64,000 bases of DNA from Candidatus Uhrbacteria bacterium (lineage in GTDB: Bacteria > Patescibacteriota > Patescibacteriia > UBA9934), in the NCBI GenBank assembly GCA_943354605.1, contig CALRCK010000002.1:6280-70279 (forward strand), given 5' to 3'. The notes beneath the pieces were generated by a model. It saw nothing but the letters and a program-made list of their open reading frames with translations. It was not told the DNA's origin and did not search any database. A program made the position numbers and the translations under genes. Each line of letters begins with the position of its first letter. Positions within the stretch are counted from its first letter, which is position 1. Shown here in pieces: positions 4,159 through 64,000 of this stretch.

Positions 4159-4284
4159 CTGAACGTTCATATTTGCGACGAGTTTGGGTGCGCGTCGAGG
4201 AAAGCTCGCGAGACGTACTTCATGTGTACGTTGAGCGAGTTTCCGATGACGCAAGCCCAAAATCGGCCAAATAGGGACGTTCAG
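4159..4284 (+). ncRNA. Conserved structured intergenic element, copy 1. The family has seven copies in this window.
   Basis: The shared core is AGTTTCGGTGCGCG..GAGGAAAGC..GCGAGACGTACTTCA..GTACGTTGAGCGAGTTTCC..ACGCAA.CCGAAAAT.GGCCAA. The copy-specific closing stem is ctgaacgt / acgttcag. It ends 7 nt before the ybaB ATG. Confidence 0.5.
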
Positions 4285-6484: not shown

Positions 6485-6592
6485 AATCGAAACTGAGCAA
6501 TCGCGCAATACAGATACCCCTGTGAATAACCTTCTTTCGTGCAATTGCAAAGATTGCTAAGCTTTCCGACGTAATTCATCTTTTTCTAATTC

Positions 6593-6712
6593 GGGGTTTC
6601 TTAGTTGCGACAAGTTTCGGTGCGCGTTGAGGAAAGCTTGCGAGACGTACTTCACGGTACGTTGAGCGAGTTTCCAATAACGCAAACCGAAAATTGGCCA
6701 ACTGAGGAAGCC
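6593..6712 (+). ncRNA. Conserved structured intergenic element, copy 2.
   Basis: It has the same core as copy 1. The closing stem is gggtttcttag / ctgaggaagccc. It ends 10 nt before the HU gene ATG. Confidence 0.5.
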
Positions 6713-6722
6713 CGCCAATCGT

Positions 6723-7010: not shown

Positions 7011-7029
7011 GCATTGGATCGTTTAAAAA

Positions 7030-7057
7030 ATCCCGCGAACAATCGCGGGATTTTTTA
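7030..7057 (+). terminator. Rho-independent terminator after the HU gene.
   Basis: The hairpin atcccgcga-acaa-tcgcgggat is followed by tttttt. Confidence 0.7.
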
Positions 7058-7098
7058 TTGTATGAAATACTTGATACACAATTTTCCTAACGAAATGT

Positions 7099-7524
7099 AT
7101 GAACAACGATTTCTACACCCACCGTTTTGAAGAAATACTCACAAAGATATCGATGACATCTTCCCTTCAGTCCGAACTCGATAGCGTTCGGGGTCCTAAC
7201 GATCCCGCAATGAGCACGGACGAATTTCGACGCGAACTTCTTGCACAGTTCTCGGTACTGCTCGAACGAGAGCGACTCAGCGATCCGAACGTAGAATTCA
7301 ATACTATCGCAGCAATGACCGTCAGCGCTTTTGCAAAGCAGTTCTCCCCAGCGCCCGACGCAAACGAAGATTCCGTCCTCAGTGAAGACGCGCAACGCCA
7401 ACTCCGCGAAATCTTCGATGACATAATGGTTCGCGTGCTCAACGCCCGATTCAAAGATCCAAATGCGTCAGAAATGCATGAGTCCTCGAATGTCATCGCT
7501 CTCAACACAAAAAGAAGGCGATAA
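7099..7524 (+). CDS. Hypothetical acidic protein.
   Basis: A 141-aa ORF with no recognisable motif. It is bracketed by two terminators. Confidence 0.4.
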   Translation: MNNDFYTHRFEEILTKISMTSSLQSELDSVRGPNDPAMSTDEFRRELLAQFSVLLERERLSDPNVEFNTIAAMTVSAFAKQFSPAPDANEDSVLSEDAQRQLREIFDDIMVRVLNARFKDPNASEMHESSNVIALNTKRRR

Positions 7525-7527
7525 TAC

Positions 7528-7558
7528 AAACCCGCGAGTGATCGCGGGTTTGTATTTG
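7528..7558. terminator. Bidirectional terminator hairpin.
   Basis: The hairpin aaacccgcga-gtga-tcgcgggttt is followed by gtatttg. It lies between convergent genes. Confidence 0.65.
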
Positions 7559-13591: not shown

Positions 13592-14851
13592 TCAGGTCTG
13601 CTCGCACCAGGCCACGAAGGTCTGGATACGTTCGATCGCCTTGCTGTCCTCGACCACCCGACCCTCGAACTTGATCTTCGCGCCGCGAACGGCGTTCAAC
13701 ATCCGCTCGATGGTGGGCCAGGTGTGGGGCACCGGCCGTTCCGCGTGGAGCCGTGCAACCGTCGCCGGGCTGAGGGCCTGGATCCGATCAGCAAGGCTCC
13801 TATTGGAGTCGCTGATGAAGATCGGACCGGTCCCCTTCGACTTCTTCTCGCCGTTGATCGTCCGTTCGAGCTCGGCCAGCGCCGCCTTCGAGGGGCGGGG
13901 ACTGGAGGGCACGGTGGACGAGCGGTTGGCGCGGAGGTGGTCGAAGATGTTGAACGGCTTCTTCGGCGCGTTCGCTTCGGCGGCCTTGCGAGCCTCCTCC
14001 GCGATGCGGGCGGCTTCGGCCTTGGCCTTCGCCGCCTCAGCCGCACGGTAGCGGACGACCGCGGCCTCAAGGCCGCGACTGACGGAGCTGAGCCAAGCCA
14101 GGTCTGCGCATCGGCCGTTCTCCAGGAACCAGCCGCGGGTGAGGGCACCGTTCCAGGCGTAGGCGAACGCGCCGTCGTCCATGCTCTGAACGAACGTCGC
14201 GAACTCCGTGTACGCGGTAGCGAGGTCCCATTCCGCATCGAGGCGAGCACGCTCCGCAGCGGCCTGGCGCTCGGCCTCGGCGGCCTCCTTCTGCCGATAG
14301 TCGCCCATCGCGGAGTCGAACACGGCTTGGGTCTTGCCGACCCAGTCCATGTCGCCATGCGAGATGTTCTCTTCGAACCAGCTCCGGGGGTACTTGCCGC
14401 CCCAGGTCTGGACGAAGAAGGCATCGGGCGCCTGGCGGACGACGGAGAGGAACGAATCGCGAGCGTTCTGCAGCTCCCGCCACTTCTGCTCCGCGGCTTC
14501 GGCGGCCTTGCGGGCTTCGGCGGCCTTACGGGCCTCCTCGGCGCGGGCGGCTTCGGCCTTGGCCTCGGCTTCCGCGGCGGCCTTGCGCTCGGCCGCGAGT
14601 CGGGCGAGGCGGGCCTCCTCGAGCTTCGCCTGGTGCGCGGCCTCGTCGAGGGCCTTCTGCGCGAGATCAGTCGCCATGCTGCGGTTCCGCCGCTTCACCC
14701 CGGCGGGGTTCATGCGGAGGATGGGGATGACGACGTCGTCGCGGCCGTAGTCGGGGCCCCAGGCACGACCCATGTTGCGGTCGGCACGGAAGGCAAAGGC
14801 GTCTTCGACACGGGAGGCACGGGAGGCGAAGTGTGCGGCGTTGCTGGACAT
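13592..14851 (-). CDS. Hypothetical Ala/Glu-rich coiled-coil protein with internal Trp-rich repeats, in high-GC island 2.
   Basis: The 13490-14900 segment is about 65% GC. It has AEAARKAAE repeats and two related modules (FFVQTWGGKYPRSWFEENISHGDMDWVG and FAYAWNGALTRGWFLENGRCADLAWL). The antisense 431-aa ORF is an artifact. Confidence 0.5.
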   Translation of the reverse strand: MSSNAAHFASRASRVEDAFAFRADRNMGRAWGPDYGRDDVVIPILRMNPAGVKRRNRSMATDLAQKALDEAAHQAKLEEARLARLAAERKAAAEAEAKAEAARAEEARKAAEARKAAEAAEQKWRELQNARDSFLSVVRQAPDAFFVQTWGGKYPRSWFEENISHGDMDWVGKTQAVFDSAMGDYRQKEAAEAERQAAAERARLDAEWDLATAYTEFATFVQSMDDGAFAYAWNGALTRGWFLENGRCADLAWLSSVSRGLEAAVVRYRAAEAAKAKAEAARIAEEARKAAEANAPKKPFNIFDHLRANRSSTVPSSPRPSKAALAELERTINGEKKSKGTGPIFISDSNRSLADRIQALSPATVARLHAERPVPHTWPTIERMLNAVRGAKIKFEGRVVEDSKAIERIQTFVAWCEQT

Positions 14852-15112: not shown

Positions 15113-15239
15113 CAGGATTTTCTTATTTCAGACCAGTTTCGGTGCGCGACAAAAGCATAAGCACCAAGCCGTACTTCTCAGTACGCCCTCGATCATGCCG
15201 AGGAAGTAAGCCGAAAATTGGCAAATAAGGATATCCTGC
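15113..15239 (+). ncRNA. Conserved structured intergenic element, copy 4.
   Basis: Its core is AGTTTCGGTGCGCG...CCGTACTTCTCAGTACGCC...GCCGAAAATTGGCAA. The closing stem is caggat / atcctg. It ends 1 nt before the tRNA-Gln 5' end. Confidence 0.5.
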
Positions 15240-15417: not shown

Positions 15418-15708
15418 ATGAGCAAACAAATGCGAAATCGTATCTTGATCAGCGTAATTGTTGGATTCATTCTGACGTTTGCATCGTTCGGCATACGAGA
15501 AAAGAATTCTCCCCTTGGGTATCCGAAAGTTAGTGCGGGTTATCCAAGAGCTTACTTGAGGGACGCTGGCGGTGTCAGTGTCGAAGGGTCACTTGGTCCA
15601 GAGGATTATTTTTCTCTGGGAGATTTTTTTATTGACGTGCTCGCATTCACCCTTGCAGCAAATGCTGTAGTTGAGCTGGGACAACAAGTAAAACGAGAAA
15701 AGAGTTGA
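15418..15708 (+). CDS. Small two-TM membrane protein directly upstream of the MazF-like gene.
   Basis: A 96-aa protein with hydrophobic helices at both ends. It lies in an AT-rich (about 40% GC) islet 3' of tRNA-Gln. There is a 7-nt gap to the next gene. Confidence 0.4.
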   Translation: MSKQMRNRILISVIVGFILTFASFGIREKNSPLGYPKVSAGYPRAYLRDAGGVSVEGSLGPEDYFSLGDFFIDVLAFTLAANAVVELGQQVKREKS

Positions 15709-15715
15709 GGATCTT

Positions 15716-16144
15716 ATGACTGCTCGTGGCATACTTAACTCAGTACAGCGATTCATCGCTTGGACGAACAGAAAAATCACTATCCATTTCGAAGATCGCT
15801 CAGAGTTCTATTTTTATGAGCGAGAAGTTTGGTGGGCGAGCTTGGGTGAAAATGTTGGATCGGAAACGAACGGTAAGAATTTTCATTTTGAACGTCCCAT
15901 CGTGATTGTGAAAAAATTCAGCAAAGATATGCTTTTCGTGATACCCACAACGACGAAAACTAAAGTTGGAACATGGTATCAGCCAATTGAATACGGTGAC
16001 ATAAAAACTCAGGCAATTTTAGCTCAAGCAAGGACCATTAGCGCAAAACGACTCATTCGAAAAATTGGCAATCTTTCACCAGAACAATTTCAACCACTCA
16101 TTGAAGGATTCGTTGCGCTTATAAAAACGAATTCCTCGACGTGA
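15716..16144 (+). CDS. PemK/MazF-family endoribonuclease toxin-like protein with a roughly 35-aa N-terminal extension.
   Basis: EVWWASLGENVGSETNGK...RPIVIV aligns to MazF/Kid GDIWxVDLDPTxGSEQxGxRPxVV. FVIPTTTKTK and the C-terminal ARTIS...L..I also match the fold. Confidence 0.55.
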   Translation: MTARGILNSVQRFIAWTNRKITIHFEDRSEFYFYEREVWWASLGENVGSETNGKNFHFERPIVIVKKFSKDMLFVIPTTTKTKVGTWYQPIEYGDIKTQAILAQARTISAKRLIRKIGNLSPEQFQPLIEGFVALIKTNSST

Positions 16145-16308: not shown

Positions 16309-17280
16309 ATGCCTCTTCTCGATTCCCTTGGGCGCGCAGCGAAATCCGTCGTCGTCCCCACAACGCTCGCCATCAGCGGCTGCGGAGCCCTCCCGGATGG
16401 AGCGAACACACCAAACGATGAACAGTACGACAGAATTGGGTATCTCGTTGATGTTGCCGACGACGCAAGACCCATCGTTAGAGAAATCGTACACTCAATG
16501 GATGGTGGGTGGGTGGACGCGCACGGCACCGTCGATAATCCCGAAGCAATGATCGATGCCGTCGACAAGGCACAAGAAACGCTCGACTACTACTGGGCGA
16601 ACGGAAATTTCTATGTTGGACCAACGTCGGTGATGGCTAGGGTCGATGGCAACGCCGTTGGATTTCACTCCCCCGCCGACAGCACGCCAACCGATCGTTC
16701 GGACAATTATATCGTCCTCAACTCCGACAAGGAAGACGAGTGGAAATCTGAGCTTGTGGTGCACGAATCCACCCATTTTTTTATGTCGCACGATGCCACC
16801 ATTGAAAGCGACCTCCTTGCAACAGAAGACGCAAGCTACACAAATCCCGAGATTGCAAAAATTATCCGGCGGCACAACGACCTCGCATACATGCACACCG
16901 GTTTGTACGCCGGTCCAAGTAATCTCCTTATTTCACTCGACCTATACCGTCGCGACAGACTTGCCGAAGCGCGCGCCGCTATTGCTGCCGGCAACACACG
17001 AGAGGCAATGCAGCAACTCAAAATGGATTTGGACATGGGCAATACGGACGAATGGATTTTAGACAAAGCCCAGTGGATTACCGAGCGATCCGTGTTCTAC
17101 GCCGAATTTGGCATCACCACAGAAATCCTTGCTGATGACCTTTCGGAAGCGGGATTGTACGAGTCAGAAATGGAAAAACGGACTAAAATTATTGACGAAC
17201 TCACCAAAGAAATCAGCGAACATCACAAGGAAGCGATTCGCGAAATTCAACTTCCGCCTATCGAATGGAACGTAAACTGA
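16309..17280 (+). CDS. Putative lipoprotein with an HExxH motif.
   Basis: It has a signal/lipobox-like TLAISGCGA and an HESTH metal-binding motif. There is no further family assignment. Confidence 0.4.
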   Translation: MPLLDSLGRAAKSVVVPTTLAISGCGALPDGANTPNDEQYDRIGYLVDVADDARPIVREIVHSMDGGWVDAHGTVDNPEAMIDAVDKAQETLDYYWANGNFYVGPTSVMARVDGNAVGFHSPADSTPTDRSDNYIVLNSDKEDEWKSELVVHESTHFFMSHDATIESDLLATEDASYTNPEIAKIIRRHNDLAYMHTGLYAGPSNLLISLDLYRRDRLAEARAAIAAGNTREAMQQLKMDLDMGNTDEWILDKAQWITERSVFYAEFGITTEILADDLSEAGLYESEMEKRTKIIDELTKEISEHHKEAIREIQLPPIEWNVN

Positions 17281-17349
17281 AAGAACGTTCTCATTTGAGA
17301 CCAGTTTCCGATGATCTGAGTCGAAAATGGGCCAAAGGAGAACGTTCTC
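17281..17349 (+). ncRNA. Truncated mini-copy of the conserved element, with both ends and closing stem but no central core.
   Basis: The sequence aagaacgttctc-atttgagaccagtttc...gtcgaaaatgggccaaagga-gagaacgttctc retains the 5' motif, the 3' CGAAAAT.GGCCAAAGGAG motif and a GAACGTTC-containing stem. Confidence 0.4.
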
Positions 17350-21912: not shown

Positions 21913-22036
21913 TGAAACGCCCACATTTGGCCTCTTTTCGACTCACTGCGTCGCAAATTCGCTCAACGTACCGTGACGTACGCCTCGCGAACTTTGCTCC
22001 TCGTTCATCGAAAATAGTCTCAAATGTGAACGTTTC
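21913..22036 (-). ncRNA. Conserved structured intergenic element, minus-strand copy, between tRNA-Gly and tRNA-Thr.
   Basis: The reverse complement carries the ATTTGAGAC...GCGAGGCGTACGTCACGGTACGTTGAGCGAATTTGCGACGCAG...GTCGAAAAGAGGCCAAA core. It has a 15-bp closing stem (gaaacgttcacattt / aaatgtgggcgtttc, 2 G-U pairs). Its 3' end is 3 nt from the tRNA-Thr 5' end. Confidence 0.5.
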
Positions 22037-22049
22037 AATCGCATTCTCT

Positions 22050-23477: not shown

Positions 23478-23489
23478 ACGCGAATTCTT

Positions 23490-23612
23490 GGAGATTTCTC
23501 ATTTGCGACGAGTTTCGGTGCGCAAGGAGCACAGTTCGCGAGGCGTACTTCTTGGTACGTTGAGCGAATGTGCGACGCAGCAAGCCGAAAATCGGCCAAA
23601 GGAGGAATCTCC
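23490..23612 (+). ncRNA. Conserved structured intergenic element, copy 3, antisense to the surrounding minus-strand operon.
   Basis: Its core is ATTTGCGACGAGTTTCGGTGCGC..GCGAGGCGTACTTCTTGGTACGTTGAGCGAATGTGCGACGCAGCAAGCCGAAAATCGGCCAAAGGAGG. The closing stem is ggagatttc / gaatctcc. There is no co-oriented gene downstream. Confidence 0.45.
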
Positions 23613-23614
23613 AC

Positions 23615-24094
23615 CTATTGTACCTTAGGGAGTGCGCTCACCACAGCATCAGGCTTCCACACCGGGCCGACAATCAACGAAAATCCATCCTCGTCGGCGC
23701 CGCGAATACAGACGTGGCCGTAGCCAATCATGGACGAAAGACCTTTGCGCATCGCCACGATCTTCTCAACGACACTCCAGGAAAGCTCGGTAACGTGGAA
23801 CGACTTTCGTTTTGAATGAACATCAATGGCGCGACGAGACGTAATGTACATGCCGTTCTCAAGATACGATCGGCGCGTATCGCGGAGCTGAGTTGTCCCA
23901 ATCATGAACGAAAGCGCACCAAGAAAGCCGCCAAAAAAAACGCCAAGGTAGAGCAACGACGACCAAAAAACGAATGGAAACACAATCAACACGAGCGCCG
24001 CAAGAATCCGCGGTGTGAGCGACCATAAACTCGGGCGAATGACGCCAAGAAATTCTTCGTCTGGTTCGAGCGTAAAAAACTTTCGCTGAATCAT
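23615..24094 (-). CDS. Membrane protein with a bacterial PH-like (YdbS/YdbT-like) domain.
   Basis: It has two TM helices and then YITSRRAIDVH..., which is bPH_2-like. Its ATG overlaps the murE stop (ATGA). Confidence 0.35.
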   Translation of the reverse strand: MIQRKFFTLEPDEEFLGVIRPSLWSLTPRILAALVLIVFPFVFWSSLLYLGVFFGGFLGALSFMIGTTQLRDTRRSYLENGMYITSRRAIDVHSKRKSFHVTELSWSVVEKIVAMRKGLSSMIGYGHVCIRGADEDGFSLIVGPVWKPDAVVSALPKVQ

Positions 24095-25419
24095 AGGGCA
24101 GAATATCCGGCATTCGCTAAGGCATTCCGAACTTCTTCTCGGTCGTCCCACGGAATCTTTCCTCCGGCAACGGCCATCACTGGTTCTGATCCTTTGCCGG
24201 TGACGAGTACCACGTCGCCCGCCTTTGCGAGATGGATCGCTTTTGCAATCGCTTCTCGACGATCATCGATAGCGAACAGCGTTTGACCGTCAACCTTTCC
24301 ATGCGCTCGAGCTCCAGCGGCAACGGCGTCAATAATCGCGCGCGGATCCTCGTCGTACGGATCTTCGTTCGTCACAAGAACGATATCTTCATTCTGGGCG
24401 GCAACCCGTCCAATTTCTGTTCGACGGGCAACGTCGCGACCTCCGCCCGCGGAACCGTGAATACCGATCACGCGACCGGATTTCATTGGGGCAAGTGATC
24501 GATACAGTGCGAGGAGCGCAAACGGTTCATACGCGTAGTCCACAACAACCATAAACGGCTGACCACAGTCGATCATCTCGAATCGACCAGGAACAGAATG
24601 GAGCGTTCCTGCTGCGCGCATCGCATCCTTCAAGGAAGCGCCGATGGCTACCGCACCAGCAATAGCGGCGAGCGCGTTCTTGTGTTCAAAATCCGCCACA
24701 AGCGCAAGCGATGTTTCGACTCCGTTCACCGAAAGCGTCACACCGCGCTGGCGGTCGTGGCGCTCCACATACGCAACAAGCCGATCCGCACTTGGCGTTC
24801 CGTTCATACCAAACGCAATATGCCGATCCGCGCGGAACGATCCATAATATGCCGCGTGTTCGTCGTCGGCATTCACCACATTTACTTTTGGAATCACCTT
24901 TCCCCCGATTGTTTTCTTTGGTCGTGCTGTGAGATGTTTGAATAAAATCCCCTTCGCTTTTTTATAGTTTTCAAAACCACCGTGCGCCTCAATATGTTCC
25001 GGCGTGAGATTCGTCAACATCGCCACGTCGTAATTCACTCCAACGTGACGATGCTGAATAAGCCCCTGCGACGACGTTTCCACAATCGCCACCGTGCAAC
25101 CCGCATTCACCATCGATCGGAGTAATCGCTGCAACGTAAAACGCCCAGGCATCGTCATCTTCATCGCGTTCACCACGTCCTTCCCGGCAATGTTGAACCC
25201 CGCCGTTGATGTGTACCCAACCGTGTAGCCAAGCGTGGTAAGAATCTGCGCCAAAAAATTCACCGTAGACGATTTTCCGTTTGTTCCCGTTACACCAATC
25301 ACGATCATCTCGCTTGACGGATGACGATACACAACCTCGGCGATTCCAGCGAGTGCATGATGATACCGCGCAACCATCGGCGCAGGGACAAGAGATTTGA
25401 GACTGCGGAGGAGAGACAT
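24091..25419 (-). CDS. murE: UDP-N-acetylmuramoyl-tripeptide synthetase (Mur ligase, MurE-type).
   Basis: It has a Mur ligase P-loop (GVTGTNGKSST), a central domain (DYAYEP..) and a C-terminal domain. The start is chosen at MSLLRSL (ATG). Confidence 0.85.
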   Translation of the reverse strand: MSLLRSLKSLVPAPMVARYHHALAGIAEVVYRHPSSEMIVIGVTGTNGKSSTVNFLAQILTTLGYTVGYTSTAGFNIAGKDVVNAMKMTMPGRFTLQRLLRSMVNAGCTVAIVETSSQGLIQHRHVGVNYDVAMLTNLTPEHIEAHGGFENYKKAKGILFKHLTARPKKTIGGKVIPKVNVVNADDEHAAYYGSFRADRHIAFGMNGTPSADRLVAYVERHDRQRGVTLSVNGVETSLALVADFEHKNALAAIAGAVAIGASLKDAMRAAGTLHSVPGRFEMIDCGQPFMVVVDYAYEPFALLALYRSLAPMKSGRVIGIHGSAGGGRDVARRTEIGRVAAQNEDIVLVTNEDPYDEDPRAIIDAVAAGARAHGKVDGQTLFAIDDRREAIAKAIHLAKAGDVVLVTGKGSEPVMAVAGGKIPWDDREEVRNALANAGYSAL

Positions 25420-29807: not shown

Positions 29808-29933
29808 GGAGAACGCCCCCGGTTGGTCTATTTTCGGCTTGCGGCTTCGAAAACTTTTTCAACGTACCGAGAAGTACGTCTCAAAAGCTTTTCTCGCCAC
29901 GCACCGAAACTAGCCACAACCGGGAACGTTCTC
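29808..29933 (-). ncRNA. Conserved structured intergenic element, minus-strand copy, immediately 5' of tRNA-Lys.
   Basis: The reverse complement carries AGTTTCGGTGCGTGGCGAGAAAAGC..GAGACGTACTTCTCGGTACGTTGA...GCCGAAAATAGACCAA. The closing stem is gagaacgttcccgg / ccgggggcgttctc. Its 3' end is 2-3 nt from the tRNA-Lys 5' end. Confidence 0.5.
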
Positions 29934-46363: not shown

Positions 46364-47797
46364 TTACAGCGCATCTGTAAATGGCGTGTGCAGTTCCGAG
46401 AAAACCGGCCAAGAAGCATCGCGAGCATTAGCGGAAAAAGGCACTCCAACGTCTGGCCACGCAATGTCGAGCGCGGGATCGTTATATTGCAGACCACCTT
46501 CCGCAGACTTTTCCCACGACGCGCCAAACACGTGGTATCGGATCCGCGAACCGTCCTCAAGCGACACCCAACCGTGCGCAAAGCCCTCTGGAACGTACAG
46601 CGCTTTGCCGTTTGCAGCACTTAATTCGATCGAGAAATGTTTTCCGTATGTTGGTGAGCTCATTCGAATATCAACTGTGACATCACGAATCGATCCCGCC
46701 GTGCACGATACAATCTTAGCCTGACCAAACGGTGGAGCTTGAAAATGTAATCCGCGAAGAATCCCCTTCGTCGATTGCCCCTCATTAATCTGCGCAAGAT
46801 CCGTACGAAGTCCGAGATTACGGAGCGCAACCAGACTTAACACCTCAGAAAACCATCCCCGTTCGTCACCGAATCTCGTTGGAGTAAATGCGAAGAGACC
46901 AGGGATTCCCGTTTGTTCAATTTTCATCCCGCCCTTAAGCGGCCCGAGGAGAAATCGCGTAAGCGCATCGCGGCGAGATGGCAGTTTTGGACCGCGTGTG
47001 TTGCGCATCATCGTAGACAGTGCGCGTTTTGCTGGCCGTTTGAATGTCGCACCATCGACAGTTGATCGCATCGGATCGATTCCGAGAACAGAAAAGATTT
47101 CTTCCGCAAATCCGTTCCACGTGACGCCGTCGTCTTCGTTCACCAAATGATACGTGCCCGCCGGATACGATTCGTCGAATAATGCGCGAACCGCAACGGC
47201 AAGGTCGGCGGTGTACGTTGGACACGCAAACTCCTCGTCGACAAGCGTAATCGCCGGCTTCGTCAAAGCACGCTGAACAATCAGCGTCACGAAACTCGGC
47301 TTACAATCAGGCGACGCACCCTGCTGCCCAAACAATCGAGACGTACGGACGATGTACGTCGAATCATGTTCAGTGCGAACCGCAACCTCCCCTGCGAGCT
47401 TGCTTTCGCCGTACACGTTTGCTGGTGCAGGAACCGCATCTTCGTTGCTCATCGATGTTGCATCACCGGAAAAAACGTAATCCGATGAAAAGTGAAGAAA
47501 CTTCGCGCCGATCGTTTTTGCTTCGCGAGCCAAAATTCCTGGAGCCTCACCATTCAACTTCGTCGCAACTGATCGCGCCGGTTCAGATTCTGCAAGATCG
47601 ACGGCGTTATACGCCGCTGCGTTTATCACGATGTCCGCAGGATGTTCCGCAAGAAATGTCTGGACGGCTTTCGCGATCGTCACGTCACAGTCGTCACGCG
47701 TCGCCGAAACGACCGAATCGCCGGCTCGTGTAAATTCTTTTACAAGATCCGACCCAAGATTCCCATTTCCTCCAAAAATAACGATGCGGCGATTCAT
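46364..47797 (-). CDS. Fused dTDP-4-dehydrorhamnose reductase (RfbD-like, N-terminal) and dTDP-4-dehydrorhamnose 3,5-epimerase (RfbC-like, C-terminal).
   Basis: The N-terminal half has an SDR Rossmann fold (IVIFGGNGNLGSDL) and YxxxK context. The C-terminal half has a cupin with GIPGLFAF...RGLHFQ and the typical RmlC motifs. The start is chosen at MNRRIV. Confidence 0.8.
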   Translation of the reverse strand: MNRRIVIFGGNGNLGSDLVKEFTRAGDSVVSATRDDCDVTIAKAVQTFLAEHPADIVINAAAYNAVDLAESEPARSVATKLNGEAPGILAREAKTIGAKFLHFSSDYVFSGDATSMSNEDAVPAPANVYGESKLAGEVAVRTEHDSTYIVRTSRLFGQQGASPDCKPSFVTLIVQRALTKPAITLVDEEFACPTYTADLAVAVRALFDESYPAGTYHLVNEDDGVTWNGFAEEIFSVLGIDPMRSTVDGATFKRPAKRALSTMMRNTRGPKLPSRRDALTRFLLGPLKGGMKIEQTGIPGLFAFTPTRFGDERGWFSEVLSLVALRNLGLRTDLAQINEGQSTKGILRGLHFQAPPFGQAKIVSCTAGSIRDVTVDIRMSSPTYGKHFSIELSAANGKALYVPEGFAHGWVSLEDGSRIRYHVFGASWEKSAEGGLQYNDPALDIAWPDVGVPFSANARDASWPVFSELHTPFTDAL

Positions 47798-62795: not shown

Positions 62796-63374
62796 ATGCG
62801 GAATATTATTTTCGGAACTGGCGAGTTTTATCATATTTACAATCGCGGTGTGGACAAGCGAACAACTTTTCTCGAAAGCCAACACTACAAACATTTCATG
62901 TTTCTCGCCGGAAGAAGCAAACACGAAATAGGGACAGGAAAACACCTTGTAAATCTGCATGCCTACGCCCTGATGCCAAATCACTTTCATTTTCTCCTTG
63001 AGCAAATGTGCGACGATGGCATAGCGCAGTTTATGCAACGTCTGAGCACTAGCTATACTCGGTGGTTCAATCATCAAAACAACCGAACAGGCAGCCTCTT
63101 TGAAACAACCTACAAAGCCAAACATATCGATACAAACGCCTACCTCGCGGTCGTTGCCGCCTATATTCATCGAAACCCGCTCGATATCATCGGAACCGAT
63201 TCAGTAGAAAATCTTGATACGTACGAATGGTCAAGCTATCCGCACTATCGAGGAATTGTAAAAAATCCCATAGTAGACGATGCGATGCTTTTCGATTTCT
63301 TTGGTGGGAAGGATTGTATTCAAAACTTTCACCAAAAATCCTTTACTCTTGGCATTGATGGCTTCGCGGAATAA
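62796..63374 (+). CDS. HUH-family Y1 tyrosine transposase (REP-associated tyrosine transposase / IS200-like TnpA).
   Basis: It has the HUH motif (NHFHFLL) and a catalytic Tyr region (TSYTRWFNHQNNRTGSLFETTYKAKHI). The roughly 190-aa size fits the family. Confidence 0.7.
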   Translation: MRNIIFGTGEFYHIYNRGVDKRTTFLESQHYKHFMFLAGRSKHEIGTGKHLVNLHAYALMPNHFHFLLEQMCDDGIAQFMQRLSTSYTRWFNHQNNRTGSLFETTYKAKHIDTNAYLAVVAAYIHRNPLDIIGTDSVENLDTYEWSSYPHYRGIVKNPIVDDAMLFDFFGGKDCIQNFHQKSFTLGIDGFAE

Positions 63375-63413
63375 CAAACTAAGTTTGAGACTAACTAAGT
63401 TAGTCAGCTTGTG

Positions 63414-63453
63414 AAACAAAAGAACGGTGCCCACAGGCACCGTTCTTTTGTTT
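63414..63453. terminator. Perfect 17-bp-stem hairpin with a T-run. It acts as a bidirectional terminator at the element's right end.
   Basis: The hairpin aacaaaagaacggtgcc-cacag-gcaccgttcttttgtt is followed by tttatc. Confidence 0.6.
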
Positions 63454-64000
63454 TTATCGAGGAGCTTCGCAAGTTGCGAGCTTGTCTTGTTGTTCTTGTT
63501 TTAAGACTGCCGCGTCGTCTGGCGATAGAGATATCGCAACATCATAATGTGCTTTACCCTGATCACAATCTCCAGTCTCAAAGAACCAATCGCCAAGCGC
63601 GGTCATGGTCCATGGGGTCTGCAGAAGATTCTTATACGCATCGTCCAACACCGCCTTCACATCATTACGACGATCCGGATAGTGGAGTTTTAAGAATTCA
63701 ACGTAGTCACGATAATATTCCTCGGTTTTTAAAAGGTCGAGCGATTTTTTGTATCCCGCTTCTGCATTTGGATAATCCGTCATCAGTTCCAAAAGGGCAG
63801 CGTACGAATTCCACGCAACGTACGACGTTGGCATGAGGGCCAAATATTTCTCATAGGTTTTACGGGACGCAACCAAATCACCAAGCATCTTTTCGTTTTC
63901 GGCAATAACAAGGTAGAGCTGATTATCAACCTCGGCGCCGGAAGAAACCTGCGACGCCAACGATGCTTGCGCGGTTGCAAGGCGCTGTTGCAGTAATACC
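63454..64000 (-). CDS. Tetratricopeptide-repeat protein. The 5' end lies beyond the window.
   Basis: It has TPR-like repeats (YEKYLALMPTSYVAWNSYAALLE...). The ORF continues in frame past 64000. Confidence 0.6.
   Translation of the reverse strand, partial: VLLQQRLATAQASLASQVSSGAEVDNQLYLVIAENEKMLGDLVASRKTYEKYLALMPTSYVAWNSYAALLELMTDYPNAEAGYKKSLDLLKTEEYYRDYVEFLKLHYPDRRNDVKAVLDDAYKNLLQTPWTMTALGDWFFETGDCDQGKAHYDVAISLSPDDAAVLKQEQQDKLATCEAPR

Follow-up and report, generated by a model that had tools for sequence, protein, structure and literature searches.

A putative family of dispersed, insertion-polymorphic palindromic repeats in Candidatus Uhrbacteria

Introduction

Immediately upstream of ybaB in a Candidatus Uhrbacteria genome (contig CALRCK010000002.1) lies a sequence of ∼125 nt that forms a strong hairpin and recurs, in variant form, beside tRNA genes and protein-coding genes of the same contig. 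What kind of entity is it? The initial annotation of this DNA (a stretch of 64 kb, referred to here as the window) took the copy before ybaB (4159–4284, plus strand; hereafter the focal copy) as one of a set of cis-acting RNAs that might define the 5′ ends of tRNAs and mRNAs. The question has wider interest: genomes of the Candidate Phyla Radiation (CPR; Patescibacteria) are small (∼1 Mb), experience strong pressure towards deletion and are generally held to contain few repeats, and for these reasons a 125-nt hairpin repeat present in several spacers per 10–60 kb is unexpected.

Here we name the element E. The explanation that we favor, and to which as a whole we give a probability of roughly one half, is that the copies of E make up a dispersed palindromic repeat family, insertion-polymorphic and native to a clade of Candidatus Uhrbacteria (Patescibacteria/CPR).

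Results

A rod-like hairpin with compensatory changes

A covariance model (CM) was built from the six full-length copies in the window and used to search the 64 kb with filters off. The seven copies listed in the initial annotation are real: the six full copies score 136–88 bits, the shortened seventh 51 bits and the next best match in the window 20.5 bits, and a repeat search links the copies in both orientations. Mean column identity in MAFFT alignments of the window copies is 71–77%, in keeping with the ∼70–80% first given. Two further candidate segments, at 47275–47420 and 63365–63500, proved not to be E.

Every full window copy folds into a single unbranched, rod-like imperfect hairpin of ∼55 bp, with minimum free energies (MFE) between −43 and −73 kcal/mol and z-scores of −5 to −11 relative to shuffled sequences. 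In the focal copy (131.8 bits; MFE −70.9 kcal/mol, z −11) the predicted fold places the 5′ arm of the outer stem, which includes a hypervariable 6-bp box, at 4159–4175 and an apical hairpin, GACGUAC-loop-GUACGUU, the invariant module of the family, at 4212–4232; the purine-rich 3′ arm (AAAUAGGGACGUUCAG), located from fold and alignment, occupies 4268–4284, all on the plus strand.

The closing stems had been described as differing between copies while remaining complementary, and this is so: of the 47 pairs that RNAalifold predicts for the six window copies, 20 have double changes that preserve pairing. In an alignment of 88 sense-strand copies from the window and related genomes (A4), changes on both sides are present in 36 of 47 pairs (662 cells), standard pairs fill 96.4% of cells compared to 80.7% after shuffling, and the covariation score is 0.473 compared to 0.175; none of 500 shuffles reaches the observed values. 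As a control, partners were slid by 1–3 columns, upon which pairing falls to 30–47%. Most compensatory changes fall at outer-stem pairs (alignment columns 2–17/115–130), with the hypervariable box located between RRAC...GTYY and ATTTG/CAAAT. The apical hairpin was also said to co-vary (CGTAC/GTACG), but its stem (pairs 60–64/73–77) is invariant in 87–88 of the 88 copies. Such very strong compensatory covariation upholds the view that this is a conserved structured element and not a protein gene.

The conserved unpaired bases are isolated purine–purine mismatches set at intervals along the rod: G24·A109, G32·A101, A40 with G92-A93-G95, and tandem GA/GA at 55–57/80–81. The consensus rod has no multi-helix junction and no conserved loop resembling a catalytic core. 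Two diverged relatives, at 1070–1200 and 1215–1345 of locus L041, have only the apical hairpin GACGUACUUCACGGUACGU in common with E, their arms being different; the second ends at tRNA-Thr (1344).

One strand is favored in every copy

Among 86 full copies there are 356 G·U cells compared to 28 A·C, and outside the five conserved wobble positions the figures are 75 and 23: together with the covariation, this is the pattern of a structured single-stranded RNA or DNA element. The element's own strand folds more stably in 86 of 86 copies (mean ∼−64 versus −49 kcal/mol), including 19 whose two neighbors are both transcribed from the other strand. Read from that other strand, conserved G·A mismatches become C·T. 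Flipped polarity was looked for in copies at tRNA 3′ ends and was not seen. Because the same strand is favored in every copy, the antisense ones included, the polarity is intrinsic to E and not imposed by host transcription. Such a strand-specific fold is typical of a single-stranded nucleic acid, and the selected form is the single-stranded rod hairpin of E's own strand.

Distribution among related genomes

A search with the apex pattern returned 60 loci in 13 species-representative assemblies (handles beginning with L below denote such loci), in which copies were then located with the CM. These loci hold 92 non-redundant copies – 99 with those of the window – so that the family, which was to be sought in relatives, does recur there, in 12–13 species-level metagenome-assembled genomes (MAGs). 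Nearly all carriers are MAGs assigned to Candidatus Uhrbacteria or to the ‘Patescibacteria group’. Metagenome contigs also encode the window's HU protein, and viral contigs gave no match to the E pattern. E is also found in assemblies titled Gammaproteobacteria, Methylococcaceae or Bdellovibrionales (L009, L017, L031, L038, L052–L055, L058, L063 and L065, from CAYHKX, CAZVBP, CAYROW and CAYMYA; also L036, JAUGSS, and L012, CANNBJ). Since L058 is syntenic with the window (DnaB-E-YbaB-RecR), these titles are probably mislabels or reflect mis-binned CPR contigs, and E may serve as a marker for Uhrbacteria contigs binned under proteobacterial names.

Rfam 15, searched at the gathering threshold with the window and 18 loci, returned only tRNA, tmRNA and one group I intron. 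At E≤10 the focal copy has only two chance snoRNA-like matches, both with E>1; hammerhead, twister, pistol, hatchet, HDV-like and hairpin ribozymes, T-box, 6S and SRP are among the Rfam families that E does not match. A literature search for a described CPR repeat or miniature inverted-repeat transposable element (MITE) of this kind found none. E lacks a match in Rfam and can be aligned over 88 copies, with 36 pairs that covary, which makes it a clean candidate for a new RNA or repeat family. Two incidental RNAs were seen in the related loci: the group I intron (RF00028, 51.1 bits) at 2343–2555 of L062, 99 nt downstream of an E copy at 2120–2244, and an ARAGORN tRNA of undetermined identity with a four-base anticodon (tttc) at 2342–2417 of L039, which Rfam also reports as tRNA (51 bits).

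Filled and empty sites

Flank-based searches revealed at least eight independent cases in which an orthologous site is filled in one genome and empty in another. The site before the HU gene is filled in the window, L001 and L002 and empty in L003–L006 and L060; L003–L006 encode an identical HU and, taken with L060, the protein is the same or near-identical. The ybaB gene of L001 likewise has no E upstream. Breakpoints coincide with the ends of the hairpin, and some include a few additional bases at its 5′ end. No target-site duplication (TSD) is present in the eight or more filled/empty comparisons, the terminal dinucleotides being inverted rather than direct, and the insertion sites have no common target motif. 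At HU the insertion added the hairpin alone, downstream of a pre-existing promoter region. E has spread into the very short intergenic spacers of compact genomes, bringing its own outer stem.

Where, then, does the hypervariable outer stem come from? Derivation from the target or from an earlier hairpin was rejected: empty sites contain neither arm, and outer stems do not match their own flanks beyond a permutation null. The idea that the variable box acts as a guide complementary to flanking DNA fails on the same permutation test. Internally deleted copies and remnants consisting of the 5′ arm only also exist; remnants of the latter kind lie 30–55 nt upstream of full copies in L010, L033, L057 (two) and L042, all beside tRNA genes. 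An arm-motif search for split or autonomous versions was too noisy for use.

Two familiar classes of mobile DNA were considered and set aside. A classical MITE derived from a DDE transposon is at odds with termini that are the most variable part of E (only an RRAC...GTYY trend is visible), with the invariant apex and with the missing TSD. An element derived from IS200/IS605 is at odds with the lack of a conserved flank motif and with the opposite orientations found on the two sides of single tRNA genes. A Pfam scan of 30 open reading frames (ORFs) from the 64 kb and ∼0.46 Mb of related contigs detected no Y1_Tnp domain. One ORF of 141 aa (7099–7524 in the window), with terminators at 7023–7058 and 7522–7557 on either side, was considered as a hidden Y1 transposase and rejected: it has no Pfam match and its flanking hairpins are ordinary terminators. 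This ORF is present in the window, L001 and L002 and absent from the spacer between HU and Gmad2 in L003–L006 and L058; in L060 that spacer has an E copy in its place.

A second, unrelated family of palindromic hairpins (∼125–185 nt, TGAGCGA/TCGCTCA units, MFE −65 to −75 kcal/mol) was noted at 7160–7345 of L027 and at 665–842 and 6437–6544 of L026. At two orthologous sites a GAGCGA-rich palindrome stands in one genome in the place that E occupies in another.

The intrinsic polarity and the insertion behavior raise the possibility that E acts at the level of DNA only, as the single-stranded DNA (ssDNA) that a strand-specific HUH/Y1 nuclease or tyrosine recombinase works on, with no function as RNA. 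The hairpin, the mismatched or extrahelical bases and the apex would then serve strand choice and protein binding during mobilization, on the models of REPIN–RAYT (repetitive extragenic palindromic (REP) doublets and their associated transposases), IS200/IS605 ends and attC. We regard this as possible though unlikely. It accords with a polarity that is independent of host transcription, with the lack of TSDs and terminal inverted repeats (TIRs), and with conserved mismatches on one strand, which resemble the strand-selection features of attC and IS608 ends. REPIN–RAYT systems, moreover, persist vertically for long periods (bioRxiv 10.1101/2021.07.10.451892). Against it, there is no conserved flanking motif such as the GTAG of REPs or the TTAC-like motif of IS200/IS605, and no partner gene was seen in the sequence examined. 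Nor is orientation tied to replication direction, because it flips within ∼200 bp around single tRNA genes; and the conservation of individual copies in situ, described below, is not expected from selection at the level of the element alone.

Placement relative to genes

In the window, the focal copy starts 52 nt after the dnaB stop and ends 7 nt before the ybaB ATG, and the copy at 6591–6715 (plus; 133.2 bits), divergent from a LytR-family gene, ends 7 nt before the ATG of HU; gaps of 7–10 nt had been reported for both. Gaps of 1–3 nt had been reported before tRNA genes, and in all three cases the figure is 3 nt: tRNA-Gln(ttg) follows 15113–15238 (plus; 88.3 bits; full-length but diverged in its interior, MFE −43 kcal/mol), tRNA-Thr(cgt) follows 21913–22037 (minus; 125.5 bits), which itself lies 12 nt after tRNA-Gly(ccc), and tRNA-Lys(ttt) follows 29809–29933 (minus; 132.6 bits). 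The tRNAs were placed by ARAGORN and Rfam; DnaB, YbaB and HU were identified by Pfam.

Even in the window, placement is not uniform. The copy at 23489–23613 (plus; 136.3 bits) is antisense to both of its minus-strand neighbors: the stop of the ORF at 23615–24151 (178 aa) is 1 nt from its 3′ end and the start codon of divIC (DivIC by Pfam) 11 nt from its 5′ end. The copy at 17281–17349 (plus; 51 bits over model positions 1–125) is internally deleted but retains both ends in a short hairpin; it begins directly after the stop of the ORF at 16309–17280, in a convergent intergenic region. In the full set of 99 copies, 20 are tandem-sense, 19 tandem-antisense, 12 convergent and 14 divergent with respect to flanking genes, and Pfam backs the assigned strand in nine of the ten genes that border five of the antisense copies, as in the order signal peptidase – E (antisense) – HisRS. 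About half of all copies are antisense or at 3′ ends, and the fixed placement before 5′ ends that had been claimed does not stand: with orientations roughly even across relatives, it is a sampling effect of the window.

What is asymmetrical is the element itself. Of 93 3′ ends of E, 61 lie ≤10 nt from a gene boundary (median 4 nt), whereas only 11 of 81 5′ ends do so (median 55 nt). The 3′ end abuts tRNA 5′ ends in 20 cases (gaps of 0–7 nt, ∼15 different tRNA genes), start codons in 11 (5–8 nt, mostly 7–8), the stop codons of convergent genes in 19 (−4 to +4 nt) and, in opposite orientation, encoded CCA 3′ ends in 11, two of them tmRNAs (−1 to 3 nt, ∼8 genes). E is strictly intergenic but for slight overlaps (a few nucleotides) with stop codons; in some of these the neighbor's stop is provided by E's terminal CTA. 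Overall, 31 tRNA or tmRNA ends face the 3′ end of E and ∼3 its 5′ end. Three tRNAs are flanked on both sides with the two E 3′ ends pointing inward (Ala in L057, Pro in L034, Arg in L042), and the orthologous tRNA-Gly/tRNA-Thr spacer in L033 has two copies, head-to-head. Should targeting, and not selection, underlie this polarity towards tRNA ends, E would add a new bacterial case of tRNA-gene-directed insertion.

These counts bear on two further explanations. The first is that of a cis-acting 5′ leader, be it a processing or insulator element or a self-cleaving ribozyme, that defines the 5′ ends of tRNAs and mRNAs. The 20 tRNA and 11 start-codon cases fit it, as do the strongly selected structure and the frequent U at position −1, a base that suits RNase P. 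We nonetheless consider it very improbable: HU and ybaB are free of E in close relatives, about half of the copies are in the wrong orientation or at the wrong end, and the rod, with its isolated mismatches, matched no ribozyme model either at the gathering threshold or, for the focal copy, at E≤10. A generic self-cleaving ribozyme was judged improbable on the same structural grounds, the rod being single and unbranched and its only conserved unpaired bases being isolated G·A mismatches. E is most probably neither a ribozyme nor a dedicated tRNA leader, and should not be annotated as a tRNA leader motif or a riboswitch.

The second explanation is a retro-mobile RNA, whose cDNA would be joined to the ends of stable RNAs (by CCA priming, or by template switching at tRNA 5′ ends) and would then enter the chromosome by recombination. 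The narrow gaps after CCA and before position +1, the mirror-image orientation at the two ends, as expected of tRNA-primed cDNA or template switching, and the sense-strand polarity would all follow. However, canonical terminators too are found directly at tRNA 3′ ends (0 nt), so that genome compaction explains the tight junctions, and stop codons, which are not RNA ends, are abutted too; no reverse transcriptase was linked to E, no poly(A) or template-switch signatures are visible, and the recombination route is ad hoc. This explanation is likewise highly improbable.

Terminator, promoter and translation signals

Copies at tRNA and tmRNA 3′ ends are richer in A at their 5′ terminus (3.8 versus 2.7 A in the first six bases, p=0.0014). 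Read on the tRNA strand, their hairpin, with ends CAAAAC...GUUUUG, is followed by GUUUU(G/U) and U-rich sequence. Canonical terminators in the window adjoin tRNA 3′ ends in the same manner, at 0 nt. The A-rich termini and the like placement of ordinary terminators indicate that copies at tRNA 3′ ends are probably terminators. A stem with a U-tract is present, in both directions, only in this tRNA/tmRNA subset and not in most other copies, and a consensus terminator scan does not call the copies of the window.

Shine-Dalgarno-like motifs are near background in these genomes (64/334 versus 60/389; window and all loci, coding sequences (CDSs) of ≥150 aa), which suggests that initiation is largely independent of such motifs, or that start calls are imprecise. 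With these motifs barely in use, nothing particular has to be invoked for the gap of 7–8 nt before start codons. The idea that the purine-rich 3′ arm itself serves as a Shine-Dalgarno sequence was rejected, the arm being ∼15 nt from the ATG in genomes that hardly use the motif.

The free 5′ side of E invites the thought that copies are independent small RNA (sRNA) genes, each with a promoter in its AT-rich 5′ flank, producing a rod RNA that acts in trans as a protein sponge, scaffold or double-stranded RNA; the polymerase would either stop at the hairpin or continue into the tRNA or gene that comes next. Consistent with this are the better fold of the sense strand in all copies, the strong conservation in situ, the 5′ spacer that is kept (median 55 nt) while the 3′ side abuts its neighbor, and head-to-head pairs separated by spacers of 22–155 nt. 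The only enrichment in the 5′ flank is a weak one: AAGAAT/GAATGA-like motifs, which resemble a −10 box, are 2–8-fold enriched in the 16 nt upstream. Yet a σ70-like promoter lies ≤30 nt upstream in only ∼20% of copies, with no fixed offset, and the promoter scan finds none. Several copies, furthermore, begin so close to a divergent start codon (3–24 nt) or to a preceding terminator (7–20 nt) that a promoter could not fit in between, and the HU insertion brought the hairpin only, below the promoter region already there. That E copies are sRNA genes is decidedly unlikely.

Conservation of resident copies

The ybaB copies of the window and L058 are 98.4% identical. Between these two genomes third codon positions are 73% (dnaB), 61% (ybaB) and 60% (recR) identical, first and second positions of these genes 92–96%, and other intergenic bases 88%: at some loci, then, E is more conserved than the first and second codon positions of essential genes. 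Orthologous copies at tRNA-Thr, at tRNA-Lys and in the pairs L047/L018 and L065/L026 are mutual best matches with 93–97% identity in the inner region (93% for the tRNA-Lys orthologs in L010 and L035). Such mutual-best-match orthologs differ by 0–6 compensated pairs, far below the neutral-divergence expectation. Conservation is not universal: the HU copies of the window and L001 have the same outer stem and different interiors, the copies at the tRNA-Gln site are only 54% identical, and other orthologous sites have diverged or been replaced. Judged by these comparisons, several resident copies are under purifying selection in situ. That many copies are vertically inherited and constrained where they stand is more than a purely selfish repeat predicts.

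The strength of this conservation gives rise to a bolder reading: that E is a host-essential, protein-bound RNA or ssDNA module peculiar to this CPR lineage. A dedicated factor would recognize the apical hairpin and the periodic G·A mismatches and use E to mark or process the ends of stable-RNA and mRNA transcription units, or E itself would target the ends of tRNA genes on insertion. We consider this unlikely. If true, ultra-small genomes would have a previously unknown means by which transcript ends are organized or a mobile element is directed to its target.

Other features of the window

The inverted repeat at 1140–1269 has no relation to E; its 45-nt arms, separated by 40 nt, are 71% complementary. 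At 13961–14560, a GC-rich direct repeat (CTTCGGCGGCCTTGCGGGC-like units) lies inside an ORF of 419–431 aa without a Pfam match, which probably encodes a low-complexity repeat protein. Directly downstream of tRNA-Gln, at 15418–16144, an ORF of 96 aa without a Pfam match is followed by a MazF/PemK-like toxin gene (15716–16144); the two probably form a type II toxin-antitoxin pair.

Discussion

A repeat selected as a single-stranded hairpin

How might a dispersed repeat come to show these properties? We suggest that the invariant apex and the G·A mismatches could form the docking site of a dedicated protein, either a mobilizing factor or an RNA-binding or RNA-processing factor; the apex would then provide a handle for finding that partner. 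Resident copies would be tolerated, or co-opted as transcript-end hairpins: sense copies within the leaders of tRNAs and within short mRNA leaders, antisense copies directly after CCA ends or stop codons, where those linked to tRNAs and ending in A/U-tracts probably terminate transcription. The flanks of tRNA genes may be favored because processing removes leaders and trailers, such that insertion there would be harmless.

Several observations weigh against the reading of E as a dispersed repeat with tolerated or co-opted copies. No transposase, RAYT, reverse transcriptase or other partner was identified in the ∼0.5 Mb examined. Copies at CDS 3′ ends have no U-tracts, and in many cases a distinct canonical terminator lies beyond the copy, as on the 3′ side of HU in L060; for these two reasons they are probably not terminators. 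No σ70-type promoter was found at a fixed offset upstream of or inside E, although CPR promoters may differ. The polarity is maintained where host genes would transcribe E only in antisense, which a role in host transcripts does not explain. Finally, the very high conservation in situ is unusual for a tolerated repeat and suggests a stronger function in the host.

Comparison with known systems

The closest parallels are other small palindromic repeats. In common with REP/REPIN (RAYT) elements, E is an extragenic hairpin of ∼100–125 nt, present in tens to hundreds of copies, with a strand-specific single-stranded form and no TSD. REPINs too persist vertically for long times, and roles in termination and mRNA stability have been proposed for them (PMC3116915; bioRxiv 10.1101/2021.07.10.451892). 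The architecture, however, is reversed: in a REPIN the conserved parts are the two terminal REP palindromes and the spacer between them varies, whereas E has an invariant apex and variable termini, and the GTAG-like tetranucleotide that flanks REPs is not present at E. REPINs are known mainly from Proteobacteria and are not known from CPR.

Integron attC sites, in particular the 123–126-bp Vibrio VCRs, are alike in length, in being imperfect palindromes of variable sequence on a conserved structure, in their location at gene ends and in having one functional strand marked by extrahelical or mismatched bases. E lacks the R′′/R′ core (RYYYAAC/GTTRRRY), forms no co-oriented cassette array and has no integrase in view; unlike integron cassettes, the genes between its copies are core genes (dnaB, ybaB, recR, HU and tRNAs), with orientations mixed. 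The palindromic elements of Rickettsia (RPE) likewise multiplied within a genome that had undergone reduction, and orthologous sites have retained them, but they often lie in-frame inside protein genes, whereas E is intergenic.

The 127-bp enterobacterial ERIC/IRU and the Neisseria Correia/NEMIS elements are similar to E in length and have no sequence similarity to it. Like E they are imperfect palindromes, insertion-polymorphic between strains and with internal-deletion variants; they are transcribed within host mRNAs in either orientation. Work by De Gregorio, by Siddique and by their colleagues is said to show that ERIC and Correia affect the fate of RNA according to orientation, through processing by RNase E or RNase III and through promoters or terminators at their ends. 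Correia has conserved 26-bp TIRs and a TA duplication, neither of which is found in E. On the sequence comparisons made here, E seems nearest in kind to REP/REPIN, ERIC and Correia, yet departs from each in the features that define it; compared to ERIC and Correia, it stands out by its stronger conservation in situ and its marked polarity towards tRNA genes.

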